Shown: positions 7,472 to 20,000 of the stretch, one piece after another | How the letters are laid out: each line of letters begins with the position of its first letter | Numbering within the stretch: position 1 is the first letter of the stretch | Source: an uncultured virus (IMG/VR IMGVR_UViG_3300023109_000020) | Taxonomy: Duplodnaviria; Heunggongvirae; Uroviricota; Caudoviricetes | Virus record (IMG/VR): IMGVR_UViG_3300023109_000020 | Direction: 5' to 3' (one strand) | DNA length: 20,000 bases | The notes under the pieces: generated by a model | Databases searched by the model: none | Told to the model about the DNA's origin: nothing | What the model saw: only the letters and a program-made list of their open reading frames with translations | Program-made: the position numbers and the translations under genes

Positions 7472-7936
7472 TTATGCGTCTTCTGTGAAGTCGTCGTCAT
7501 CGGTTCCAACTAGCACGTTGTTGATACCAGCTTCTTCAACTTGTGCTGCGCCATCTACTAGTGATGTTGCAAAGTTCCATGGAACACTCTTGCCATCATA
7601 AGCATTACTGCCTGTTGCACTTGGTGCTGACAAAGTAACTTTACGACCAGCAATTTTACTTACTGTGTATGTTTCTTCGTCGTCCATTTTGAATGAAATA
7701 GCCATTTCACCTGCCGCTAATGCCGCTGGTAGTTTACCAGTTGTTAGCGTACAAGTAAATTGCCCTGGCGTTCCAATTTCTTCACATACAAATTTCTTTG
7801 ATGCTACTTGCTTTATGATATAACCTTCTTTAACTGCTGTGCCGTTATGAAAGTTTACTTTGATTTCGTCTCCAGTTGCAGCACCAGGGCCTACGTTTGG
7901 TACAGCGAATAATCTTTTGTTTAGTGGTCTTCCCAT
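7472..7936 (-). CDS. Hypothetical late protein, possibly abundant head-associated/decoration protein
   Basis: 154 aa, strong AGGAGA RBS, own late box and structured leader, first protein gene after the capsid gene. Function inferred from position only. Confidence 0.78.
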   Translation of the reverse strand: MGRPLNKRLFAVPNVGPGAATGDEIKVNFHNGTAVKEGYIIKQVASKKFVCEEIGTPGQFTCTLTTGKLPAALAAGEMAISFKMDDEETYTVSKIAGRKVTLSAPSATGSNAYDGKSVPWNFATSLVDGAAQVEEAGINNVLVGTDDDDFTEDA

Positions 7937-7954
7937 TTGTTTTCTCCTATAAAA

Positions 7955-8025
7955 AGTAGTCCTATGCCCGTTCTATGGGCTACGCTGTGGGTACAGCATA
8001 AGTCCGCCTTGCGGCACACTATCTG
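7955..8025 (-). promoter_or_regulatory. Candidate structured 5' leader RNA (three hairpins)
   Basis: Minus strand: GCC-GCAA-GGC (GNRA loop), TATGCTGT-ACCC-ACAGCGTA, GCCC-ATAGAAC-GGGC, between the late box and the RBS; GC-rich relative to surroundings. Confidence 0.55.
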
Positions 8026-8082: not shown

Positions 8083-8295
8083 AATAATAAAGTGATAGGT
8101 TGGACTTTGAGAATACCAACAACCTCCTAGTAGCTCTCGCTAAATTCGGAGGAGCCTAGCATCGGATAGTTACTTCCAAAAACATATCTTTGTATCTCTA
8201 CAATCATATGTTGCCACTACAGCTACTAGCCAAGTTGTGTCACTACGCAACACCGTTCCTTGCACTATCTAATCTAAACCGTCGTTTAGCTTATA
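8048..8295 (-). ncRNA. Candidate standalone structured ncRNA (~240 nt), family not recognised
   Basis: Bounded by a sigma70-type promoter and an intrinsic terminator; no minus-strand ORF in the track; several helices, a GAGA tetraloop and a 9-bp long-range complementarity. Confidence 0.6.
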
Positions 8296-17444: not shown

Positions 17445-18281
17445 ATGGAAAACTCTACAAATCCGTTAGCAAAATATACTAGACAGCCTAAGCTGTTTAT
17501 TGATCTGCCTAGTAAAGGAAACGCTTATCCGTCTGGTGCATTAGACAAAGTTGAAGAACTAGAAGTGTATAGCATGACAGCCAATGACGAGATTGCTATT
17601 AAAACTCCAGACGGACTATTTAGCGGCAAGGCAACAATGGGTGTTATTCAAAATTGCGTTCCGTCAATTAAAGATGCAAATTTTATTACTAATCGAGATT
17701 TAGATTATATCCTTGCTGCTATACGAATTGCAAGTTACGGCGATTCAATTAGTTTAACTAAAGTATGCGAGTCTTGCGAAAACGAAGACACTTTTGCATT
17801 TCCATTACAACAACTGCTTGATCATCTAACTGCTGCTGAATTAGTTTACGAAACTACTGTTAACGAGTTTAAATTTAAAATAAGACCGCTATATTATAAA
17901 GAAATTGTTTCAAATCAACAAGAAAGTGTTAAACTAAGGCGCCACCTAAATCAAATCTTGTCTAAATTAGAAGATGCTAACGAGCGTGCTGAGCAAATTG
18001 ATTTAATATATGAACAAATAAATGAACAGACTAAAAATGTTATTTGTAGTGTTGTTACAGAAGTAACAACACCCGACGGAACTTCAGAAACAAATCATCT
18101 TTTTATTAAAGATTTTATTCTTAACAATGAAAGTGATTTTTATAATACTATTCAAGATTTATATGCTAAAAATGCTAAAGCACTTGAAATACCAGCTGCT
18201 ACAGTAGAGTGCAGTAATTGTAACAAAGAACAATCTATTCAACCTAATTTGGATTATTCAAGTTTTTTCTCGAAACGCTAG
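17445..18281 (+). CDS. gp26: Baseplate hub assembly protein (T4 gp26-like)
   Basis: Motifs FIDLPSKG, MTANDEIAIK, IQNCV, DLDYILAAIRIASYG and two CxxC (CESC, CSNC), ending in FF, as in gp26-family proteins. Confidence 0.78.
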   Translation: MENSTNPLAKYTRQPKLFIDLPSKGNAYPSGALDKVEELEVYSMTANDEIAIKTPDGLFSGKATMGVIQNCVPSIKDANFITNRDLDYILAAIRIASYGDSISLTKVCESCENEDTFAFPLQQLLDHLTAAELVYETTVNEFKFKIRPLYYKEIVSNQQESVKLRRHLNQILSKLEDANERAEQIDLIYEQINEQTKNVICSVVTEVTTPDGTSETNHLFIKDFILNNESDFYNTIQDLYAKNAKALEIPAATVECSNCNKEQSIQPNLDYSSFFSKR

Positions 18282-18506: not shown

Positions 18507-19625
18507 TTAATCAAAAACATTATCTAGTCCGGAGCCGGTGCCTTGAGCAGCCGGAGTGACTTCCGCCGCGCCTTGACCTACTTCTGTGTCGCTCACAGTT
18601 GGCGCAGCGCCGCCTTGTGTTGCAGCAAATTCATCAACAGCGTCTTTTACAGCAGCAACCGCATCGTCGTCATCTGTAGCAAGATCTATTGCACCAACTA
18701 TTGCACTGCCTATGACATTATAACTTATATCCATCGCTTTTGCAAATTGCATTCCGTAATAACTAGCAACAAATTTTATCAGAGCATTTCGAACATTTTC
18801 ATTACGCATAATTGCTTGTGCTGCAAAATAAATTCCAACTTCAGTTAGAAGAAGTACTAGTGCGTTGAATACTGCCATACCTAAAAACCCAGGGCCGGAT
18901 GCAATACTTATACCCTGTCTAATCGCAGCGGCAGCTGCCATCATTGATCTTATTGGCGTTAAAAGCGCCATTATGGCTCTACGTCCCTTTCTAAGTATAG
19001 TAATAAGAGCTGGAACTACAAATGTTCCTACCCAAGTAGCAAAATATCTGCCAGCAGCTATCTGATATTGTTCTTCAGACATAGGGTTTGCCCATAGCTG
19101 TGGGTCATGCCCATCTTCGCCAGGTGGGATAGGATATTTAAGATTATGAAGTTCCTTCAGCTCTTGCTCTAACTGAGAATACGCAGCCAACGGCAAACCT
19201 AAACTTAGAGATATACCAAGTGTGCCTTGAAAAGCTCTTTTACTAGCTGCCCAGGCGCCACGACGTCTTAGTCTTCGTTCACTATCAGCTTCTGTTTCTC
19301 GACTATCGTTATTTCCAGGTGTCACACCAACCGGTGTATTATTTATTTGTCCTCTAACGCCGCCACCGCCGTCAAAGTCAATTCTCTGCAATCCAGAACT
19401 AGCTCGTAAAGCATTAACAAACCCGCCTCGATATTTTCTTGGCAATGGTTGATTAACACGAACATCTGGATAATTGTCACGAGCTGTTGCATTCATACTA
19501 GTTACTTGGAATTGATTTCCTTTCCATTCAGCAGTAATGCCGTTATGAACAATACGATCACCAGCATTAAGCATAAAGTCTCCAACACTGCCAGCTTCGT
19601 TTATAATATCGTATACTGCTACCAT
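18507..19625 (-). CDS. Hypothetical late protein with several hydrophobic helices
   Basis: 372 aa, AAGGAG RBS, late box upstream; about three hydrophobic stretches. Confidence 0.8.
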   Translation of the reverse strand: MVAVYDIINEAGSVGDFMLNAGDRIVHNGITAEWKGNQFQVTSMNATARDNYPDVRVNQPLPRKYRGGFVNALRASSGLQRIDFDGGGGVRGQINNTPVGVTPGNNDSRETEADSERRLRRRGAWAASKRAFQGTLGISLSLGLPLAAYSQLEQELKELHNLKYPIPPGEDGHDPQLWANPMSEEQYQIAAGRYFATWVGTFVVPALITILRKGRRAIMALLTPIRSMMAAAAAIRQGISIASGPGFLGMAVFNALVLLLTEVGIYFAAQAIMRNENVRNALIKFVASYYGMQFAKAMDISYNVIGSAIVGAIDLATDDDDAVAAVKDAVDEFAATQGGAAPTVSDTEVGQGAAEVTPAAQGTGSGLDNVFD

Positions 19626-19651: not shown

Positions 19652-19659
19652 TATTTATT
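19652..19659 (-). promoter_or_regulatory. T4-late-like promoter box AATAAATA
   Basis: 26 nt upstream of ATG 19625, followed by CAC like the other boxes. Confidence 0.55.
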
Positions 19660-19775
19660 AAATATATTTAGTATATCTACTTCGTAGATATAAGTTTTCG
19701 TTAGCACTCAAACTATAACACTTCGTTTTGATTAAATGATTTATATATAATTGCAATATTACGAATGTAATATTG
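19659..19775. repeat. Cluster of perfect AT-rich inverted repeats and palindromes
   Basis: TAAATATATTTA (19659-70), TATATCTAC-TTC-GTAGATATA (19672-92), TTATATATAA (19741-50), CAATATTAC-GAAT-GTAATATTG (19754-75). Confidence 0.8.
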
Positions 19776-19779
19776 TTTA

Positions 19780-20000
19780 AGTTTCATGTAGATCGTTTCA
19801 GTCAGACGGAACCTGTTACGGTCCCATCTAATCTCAAAATGCGCTTCATGTGAGTCATGCACCAGCCGAGACATTGGAAGTAGGTAATTGTTTATACACA
19901 AAGTACAATGGGCTCTGACCTTTCCCAACCTACGTCGACATCGCTGTTTCCAGCTACCTCTCGCTTCGTTCCTATTGCTAAAGAGTTTTTATGTACTGTG
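19780..20000 (-). ncRNA. 3' part of a candidate large structured non-coding element (truncated by the window edge)
   Basis: GC-enriched with nested helices: GCTG-GAAA-CAGC, GTAGGT/ACCTAC, TGGG/CCCA, AGATGGGACC/GGTTCCGTCT, long-range GTCAGA/TCTGAC. G-U pairs and the GNRA loop favour the minus strand. Confidence 0.5.

Follow-up and report, generated by a model that had tools for sequence, protein, structure and literature searches.

Few large phage RNAs have an assigned function. At the oriF and oriG origins of phage T4 replication starts from R-loops; these origins are multiple, transcript-primed and followed by an AT-rich unwinding region, and to our knowledge they neither need a conserved pseudoknotted RNA nor have twin repeats. 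In ColE1 the G-stretch/C-stretch step brings a distal RNA segment to pair with template DNA further downstream. HEARO and OMEGA RNAs are the partners of the nucleases IscB and TnpB, and the ncRNA of DRT2 carries repeated ACA motifs for template jumping. According to the available passages of two reports, the RNA II preprimer of ColE1 works as an RNA-primed origin (PMC6380287), and a pas-type hairpin serves primosome assembly (PMC5778457).

The window, a stretch of 20,000 nucleotides from an uncultured virus, comes from a large T4-like phage. PHROG matches identify portal, head protease, major head protein and baseplate genes in it, and its capsid protein is 67-72% identical to the homologues in Phosso, GAP32, BF and PA5oct. 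At the right edge, upstream of a minus-strand ORF of 372 aa (18507-19625), lies a non-coding block (19780-20000, minus strand), which is the 3' ~60% of an RNA of uncultured Rak2-like aquatic phages. The RNA is real, large and uncatalogued, in that it has no Rfam family. The initial annotation had seen in the block the 3' part of a large phage RNA, non-coding and with several pseudoknots, and this is borne out by covarying helices and unconserved reading frames; what it gave as an alternative, a structured replication element, is the best reading, which we hold tentatively. The features of the locus are as follows, L043 being the locus that continues the window past its edge.

19783..20000, minus strand: 3' domain of the structured RNA (type A), from L043 identity and covariation
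19992..19996, minus strand: 5' strand GTACA of the long-range pseudoknot helix with the best support, 103 two-sided changes in 90 sequences
19903..19907, minus strand: 3' strand TGTAC of the same helix, from covariation
20000-19992 and 19907-19897, minus strand: initially annotated motifs CACAGTACA and TGTACTTTGTG, positions confirmed
19958..19985, minus strand: stem CTCT/AGAG around an invariant GGAAC (19972-19968), with 48 two-sided changes
19943..19954, minus strand: hairpin of variable length, here GCTG-GAAA-CAGC, far longer in some relatives
19880..19933, minus strand: core helices GTAGGT/ACCTAC (19933-19928 with 19885-19880) around TGGG/CCCA (19927-19909), with the nearly invariant loop AAAGGTCAGAG, from covariation
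19919-19914 and 19806-19801, minus strand: GTCAGA/TCTGAC, candidate pseudoknot
19845..19855, minus strand: repeat copy 1, ACTC + ACATGAA (heptamer 19851-19845), proposed guide segment, matching copy 2 at positions 1-6
19804..19829, minus strand: GC-rich hairpin separating the two repeats; the sequence of its 3' strand, GTTCCGTCTGA, is constant also where that of the 5' strand is not
19783..19793, minus strand: repeat copy 2, ATCT + ACATGAA (heptamer 19789-19783), proposed DNA target
19754..19775: 9-bp AT-rich hairpin CAATATTAC-ATTC-GTAATATTG, the first downstream hairpin, from sequence
19672..19714, minus strand: hairpin block in a stretch of 22% GC, the motif GAGTGCTAACGAAAAC followed by TATATCTAC-GAA-GTAGATATA (C-GAA-G triloop)
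19652..19660, minus strand: TAATAAATA, which we take to be T4 late-promoter-like; it precedes the 372-aa ORF and ends the non-coding block
L043:2243-2689: SegE-type GIY-YIG domain (PF19835)
L043:2672-3050, plus strand: complete element, ~380 nt, overlapping the last codons of the SegE-type GIY-YIG gene

All motifs of the initial annotation were recovered in place on the minus strand. It had also suggested extending the contig past position 20000 and looking for a neighbouring gene: L043 matches the window over 224 of 224 nt, supplies the 5' part and carries an endonuclease gene upstream. The RNA runs ~154 nt past the window edge, the share of the window being the 3' 218 nt. Among 52 unique relatives the element measures 372-500 nt, and an exact 21-mer of the 3' hairpin is present in 91 viral-contig stretches. 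The segment is richer in GC than the 150 nt downstream (0.443 versus 0.220) but equal to the next gene (0.434), so that the noted GC-richness stands on one side only. A TATAAT promoter was not found for the L043 element, whose transcription would start with that of the operon. In four marine RNA libraries, out of 23 listed runs, contigs span genes and RNA alike; strand, ends and level are not readable from such contigs.

The type A set holds 157 full-length elements (115 unique, 90 of these under 93% identity, mean identity 0.65), loci without either anchor being left out, and the covariation figures derived from it count sequences, not independent events. A covariation check on homologues had been proposed for the RNA, and the compensatory changes are strong: in the 90 relatives GTACA/TGTAC is paired in 428 of 444 cells, with its 103 two-sided changes. 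GTAGGT/ACCTAC is paired in all 540 cells (3 two-sided and 11 one-sided changes), TGGG/CCCA in 352 of 360 (4 two-sided), and the 3' hairpin in 869 of 899 (3 two-sided and 86 one-sided changes of the G-U type). GGAAC could pair with the GTTCC of the 3' hairpin; both are invariant (450/450 cells) and show no covariation either way. Among the other motifs, the GAAA tetraloop hairpin is present and its closing pairs covary, its size not being fixed, as it is a site of variable-length insertion. GTCAGA and TCTGAC, proposed to pair over ~110 nt, are indeed complementary (626 of 630 cells), but they show no two-sided change, compete with the base of the hairpin and, in the L110-type and L011-type lineages, have one pair that does not form. 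Outside the window, five more helices covary in the 5' part, one of which is a second long-range pseudoknot. Folding energy alone does not exceed chance (z -1.32, a value reached by 20 of 200 shuffles; plus strand z +1.77), and the evidence for the structure is comparative.

Two further RNA types share the genomic place and the 3' layout of type A and have different 5' folds. Type B (79 unique) was found among loci fetched by the GIY-YIG protein, and type D by a B motif. In L560 and L561 a D-like 5' half is joined to a type A 3' half, and the RNA family is therefore modular.

A scan with Rfam 15 (including GOLLD, ROOL and OLE) gave no match over the element in the window, in eight full-length loci and in three cultured loci; membership of the GOLLD, ROOL or OLE families, to which the RNA had been likened, thus finds no covariance-model match. 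The window contains no tRNA. When the element of the window or the complete L043 RNA was compared with cultured phages by blastn, all matches were at chance level. A plasmid search gave no match. A group I or group II intron derivative, which had also been considered, or the end of a coding gene, would fit the GIY-YIG neighbour and an A-rich, P4-P5-like internal loop seen by eye in the 5' half. We regard this as extremely improbable: Rfam intron models do not match, flanking exons that could be joined are absent, the upstream ORF ends intact, and the downstream DNA is non-coding and then continues in a variable gene with its own start. Nor are frames conserved, since 103 of the 115 relatives have no open frame through the segment and lengths fall 37/48/30 over the three frames. 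Resemblances to RNase P, a T-box and a DnaA box, noted by eye, were supported neither by covariation nor by Rfam.

The window also holds other signals, away from the element. A freshwater-2 RNA (Rfam) is found at 7934-8018 on the minus strand (70.5 bits, gathering score 49.9), directly upstream of a 154-aa ORF (7472-7936). A manA-like match at 8089-8289 on the minus strand (E 6e-9; its 45.4 bits fall short of the gathering score, 55.2) sits between the terminator of the major head gene and the freshwater-2 RNA. A TTTTTTC run at 18263-18269 on the plus strand ends the gp26-like ORF 17445-18281, after which a short reading frame extends to 18499.

The usual gene order is a gp46-like gene, an ORF of 65-80 aa, a SegE-type GIY-YIG gene (PF19835, phrog_447) and the RNA, followed 3' by AT-rich hairpins, a variable gene and a convergent gp26-like hub gene. 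The small ORF is a histone H1-like Hc1 protein in L240:108-290 (PF07432, E 2e-13), whereas its counterpart L043:2003-2236 has no family match. The place of gp46 upstream of the GIY-YIG gene is taken by haem-biosynthesis-like ORFs in L021 and L061 and by a flavin-halogenase-like ORF in L003, all assigned by eye. Just upstream of the RNA, L196 has about ten copies of a 14-mer, with an RNase HI-like ORF (by eye) upstream, and L197 and L240 have AGGCAC-rich short tandem repeats. In PHROGs and in many phage records phrog_447 is labelled 'NAD synthetase', in conflict with the Pfam match.

The GIY-YIG gene lies directly upstream in 90 of 90 unique type A and 27 of 28 type B RNA-anchored loci, often overlapping the RNA 5' end, and the GIY and YIG-like motifs are conserved in 141 proteins. 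This constancy would suit an RNA that guides or scaffolds the adjacent nuclease, in a mobile or anti-competitor system of the HEARO/OMEGA kind. However, within 1150 nt a co-oriented GIY-YIG gene is lacking from 16 B-pattern loci out of 72 and from one type A locus out of 71: a resolvase-like ORF takes its place in six, another six are without any nuclease, the gene is inverted in one, an ORF is inserted in two, and a further one is a false hit. For two of the resolvase-like ORFs phrog_244/PF24608, of the PD-(D/E)XK type, was confirmed. The copies in cultured phages (below) have no GIY-YIG gene, the homologues of this gene in Melnitz, phiM12 and S-SSM4 are not accompanied by an RNA of this kind, and the guide would be nearly constant and match its own locus. 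The guide explanation is therefore very improbable, and an obligate nuclease partner finds no support, the initial annotation having thought of a nuclease-associated RNA: the slot contains a GIY-YIG, a PD-(D/E)XK or an endonuclease VII protein, or nothing. Judged from gene order alone, the nuclease appears to fill the junction-resolvase slot of a recombination operon. The GIY-YIG protein has no sequence match in the PDB, its single-sequence fold (pLDDT 36) is unusable, and TnpB (PF07282) gave no match over the cut-off in five genomes.

The twin repeats provide a sharp, testable signature, as the heptamers change in concert. The hexamers following ACTC and ATCT are identical in 115 of 115 type A and 74 of 74 type B elements, with a pattern that fixed positions 1-3 to [AG][CG]A. 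A finder without fixed positions detected at least six shared bases in 136 of 137 B/D loci, and in 111 the shared run measures exactly seven. The B/D search gave four further loci in which a pair is absent: three are false hits, and L178 is without the module. With copies chosen by their flanks alone, hexamers were identical in 132 of 137 B/D loci, the five misses being four mis-picks and L193, with 5 nt in common. Chance identity is ~0.5 at B positions 1 and 5. The hexamer has at least twelve states; on RNA trees made without it we count 9 (115 A), 27 (74 B) and 53 (132 B/D cores) state changes, and 39 on the GIY-YIG tree of 141 proteins, all of which are inflated by short alignments and recombination. 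L178 is a type B element without copy 1 and the GC hairpin, by natural deletion or assembly error.

A complement of the repeat in a consistent position was not found within ~1 kb around the RNA (complements occur in 5 of 98 ACATGA loci, at scattered places), so a base-paired partner would be the opposite DNA strand. The concerted repeats thus point to pairing with that strand or to a shared protein. Position +8 has a G/A mismatch in 157 loci and position +9 a T/C mismatch in 44, the reverse being seen about once at either position. Copy 1 fits the complement of copy 2 at +8 in a fraction of 0.81-0.91, versus 0.17-0.30 for the reverse pairing. The other direction suits the fixed bases at -1 and -3 better, and G-T wobble is never used in positions 1-6. 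The copies are 47-68 nt apart, without helical phase and not in multiples of three, and none of the residues in 141 GIY-YIG proteins predicts the hexamer. A reading of the repeats as dispersed promoters or Chi-like sites was dropped, because genome-wide hexamers show no clear excess or strand bias and because a looser module pattern is no commoner than its control in most records.

Strict identity starting at the ACTC/ATCT boundary, with wobble tolerated further out, is also what the fit of a primer 3' end would require, and the element might be a template on which a polymerase jumps: the nascent complementary strand would copy copy 2 and re-anneal on copy 1. Template jumping of this logic is known from DRT2, telomerase and the coronavirus TRS. 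The variable spacing, which is not a multiple of three, argues against it, as does the lack of a joint between the copies among the joints listed (15 of 18). A reverse-transcriptase association had been suggested initially; RVT_1 matches occur in 0 of 9 related records, two of which are aquatic genomes 99-100% complete, a result that leaves divergent or host enzymes possible. We rate the jump as quite improbable.

The 200 nt that follow the element are AT-rich. Hairpins with a C-GNA-G triloop, of which the window has an example at 19672-19692, occur at 1.06 per 200 nt downstream versus 0.011 in shuffles (~100-fold) and at 0.00-0.02 in the first 200 nt of the RNA. They are found in 70 of 88 type A and 47 of 55 type B loci, on both strands. 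The RNA body is nearly free of such loops, that of type B having GNRA loops instead, and GNA triloops are especially stable in DNA. The C[ATTC]G loop of the first hairpin has 26 occurrences downstream of 95 type A loci. On the transcript-sense strand the locus reads as a pseudoknotted scaffold that ends in copy 1, hairpin and copy 2; beyond it the triloop hairpins lie in AT-rich DNA.

A similar arrangement is present in cultured phages. In GAP32 and 121Q an 800-nt gap at the gp46/gp26 locus, beside endonuclease VII, contains a promoter, a B/D-like core, repeat-hairpin-repeat and triloop hairpins. This cultured-family element occurs, unannotated, at 293 places in 72 GenBank phage records, among them phage Sharanji, with E. 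coli K-12 MG1655 as recorded host. There are four copies in 121Q, five in GAP32 and three in RaK2, co-oriented and widely spaced; those of GAP32 lie at 35, 99, 177, 261 and 341 kb, on the strand with most genes. The minimum gap has P=0.005 in GAP32, P=0.05 in 121Q and P=0.13 in RaK2 under uniform placing. A TATAAT promoter and both repeats are present in 12 of 12 copies, and a terminator-like hairpin just after copy 1 in 8 of 12, compared with 0 of 115 type A and 1 of 74 type B elements. Paralogues of one genome share one hexamer (CGTCAA in 121Q, CGTCAG in GAP32, CTTCAA in RaK2). The aquatic genomes of ~350 kb, two of them nearly complete, have one detectable copy each. In RaK2 the copies L426 (280 kb) and L429 (191 kb) are near-identical in the 3' half and the downstream block and differ in the 5' half, which suggests recent gene conversion.

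Trained on 44 B/D cores alone, a covariance model placed type A sources first in 2 of 6 cases (E 0.005-0.02) and cultured copies next in 6 of 11 (E 0.03-1.3), and had no match to the element of the window at E<=2. Over 1.25 Mb three GAP32 copies are among its five best non-self matches. Nhmmer sequence profiles gave no cross-hits between type A and the cultured family. By locus, layout and weak scores, a link between the two is plausible. The element was not found in PA5oct and Atu_ph07; for PA5oct there was no blastn, nhmmer or descriptor match, the descriptor scan being insensitive, as it missed all GAP32 copies. A stretch at the same locus of PA5oct as the GAP32/121Q gap (L419:10528-12042) has a perfect TTGACA-17-TATAAT promoter, then ~1.3 kb with only tiny annotated ORFs; a GC hairpin and triloop hairpins close the stretch. 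It is possibly a very diverged equivalent, matched by no model used here. The four published ncRNAs of PA5oct map elsewhere, going by the available part of their report (PMC7318152).

In 2 of 5426 E. coli genomes an integrase-bearing island at ffs carries the promoter, the RNA, both repeats and the downstream hairpins, with a hexamer of the GAP32 type. The island (L559:4958-14857) comprises an IS3-interrupted integrase, the RNA cassette, DUF4326, DUF488 and dual-OB genes and a recombinase, and is a candidate jumbo-phage satellite or defence island.

The single hexamer common to all paralogues of a genome, the own promoters and multiple copies, the extensive pseudoknots and the interchangeable 5' domains (L560/L561) would all be expected of a trans-acting ornate RNA or RNP, GOLLD/ROOL-like and possibly oligomeric, whose heptamers are two sites for one phage protein with a genome-specific preference. 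A protein that tolerates dozens of hexamer changes should, however, permit unlike pairs, of which there are almost none, and the hexamer is not predicted by any GIY-YIG residue. Moreover, copy 2 lies beyond the terminator-like hairpin in 8 of 12 cultured copies and DNA-type hairpins always accompany the RNA, so that we hold this explanation to be somewhat unlikely.

The element has a fixed place by gp46 and by a junction nuclease, for which three unrelated folds occur (SegE GIY-YIG, phrog_244/PF24608 and endonuclease VII). This can also be taken to indicate a cis-acting DNA-processing site other than an origin, namely a packaging start, a site of concatemer resolution or a recombination hot spot, with either the RNA or the repeat-hairpin-repeat DNA as its mark. 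Recombinase overlap regions resemble a 6-7-nt identity requirement such as that of the repeats, and the capture of the element by an island would fit as well. Yet a spacing of 47-68 nt without helical phase is short for duplex recombination, three of the four 121Q and four of the five GAP32 copies lie far from the gp46/nuclease locus, and a module-less variant was seen once only (L178). Such a site is in our view unlikely.

The reading that we prefer, as a possibility and with due reserve, is a cis-acting, RNA-directed DNA-opening site, most likely an R-loop replication origin like those of ColE1 and T4. The folded RNA would present copy 1, which would pair with the template DNA strand under copy 2, ~60 nt downstream, by seven strict and two wobble-tolerant pairs. 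A persistent R-loop would result, with the inter-repeat hairpin on the displaced strand; the RNA, cut or trimmed by RNase H or the junction nuclease, would become the leading-strand primer, and the downstream hairpins, once single-stranded, would load helicase and primase. The adjacent GIY-YIG gene would be the interchangeable Holliday-junction-resolvase slot of a gp47-gp46 operon and not the dedicated enzyme of the RNA. A phage RNase H is present in two of five genomes (121Q and GAP32; absent from RaK2, G005 and G006).

We favour the origin because the hexamers remain identical (115/115 A, 132/137 B/D) despite many state changes, because the +8/+9 mismatches are directional and fit copy 1 with the complement of copy 2, and because C-GNA-G hairpins are enriched downstream. 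The cultured element, in addition, is multi-copy and co-oriented with a promoter in every copy, and the E. coli island carries the cassette as a satellite borrowing a cis site would. Against it speaks the single hexamer per genome, for which a shared protein or gene conversion is simpler than strict cis pairing, as well as the absence of core wobble and the -1/-3 bases. Likewise, 115 of 115 type A and 73 of 74 type B elements have no terminator after copy 1, the ~350-kb aquatic genomes hold a single detectable copy, and the link of type A to the cultured family is weak. GC skew tracks the coding strand and makes no turn at the element, RNase H is missing from three of the five genomes, and PA5oct and Atu_ph07 gave no copy.

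A bolder proposal, rather unlikely to be right, is that this jumbo-phage clade starts replication by RNA-guided DNA opening, using a pseudoknotted RNA of 400-500 nt with a short, reprogrammable guide. If so, the guide would find and open a matching DNA site, at its own locus or at a sister copy anywhere in the genome, and the heptamer would be a genome-specific replicon password, to be copied by satellites. Should the origin reading be true, initiation would be RNA-directed in a new way and the RNA possibly a programmable opener of DNA; if that reading is false, there is still a widespread large RNA family outside Rfam. In the literature searched we found no description of this RNA and none of the replication start of Rak2-like jumbo phages. 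The available part of Fremin 2023 (PMC10690425) contains no motif of the element, fragments of which may be among the candidates of that study.

Compared with the known systems, the element shares with DRT2 the identical short repeats that flank a structured segment, but no reverse transcriptase was found with it (9 records), its repeats are 6-7 nt and their spacing varies. As with HEARO and OMEGA RNAs, a structured RNA abuts or overlaps a small nuclease gene and has a candidate guide near the 3' end; here, however, the nuclease is exchangeable or absent, TnpB stays below the cut-off (5 genomes), and the element occupies a fixed genomic site with a candidate guide that matches its own locus. 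GOLLD, ROOL and OLE are likewise large, covarying, pseudoknot-rich and phage-borne, as described in the available portion of (10.1101/2024.12.08.627333), whereas the present element has no Rfam match and no tRNA in the window, and has twin repeats and a DNA-hairpin tail. With T4 oriF and oriG it has in common the multiple copies, the T4-like phage and the AT-rich region downstream, transcript priming being proposed here. As in ColE1, an upstream segment is able to pair with the template downstream (copy 1 equals copy 2), a pairing that we infer. A further likeness to ColE1, judged from the available parts of the reports, would be a long folded RNA, probably made from a promoter, that lies over its own DNA and precedes putative single-strand DNA hairpins (PMC6380287, PMC5778457). 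Unlike in ColE1, the pairing segment would be a fast-changing heptamer of mixed sequence, priming is a proposal, and the element resides in lytic phages of 350 kb, with up to five copies per genome.
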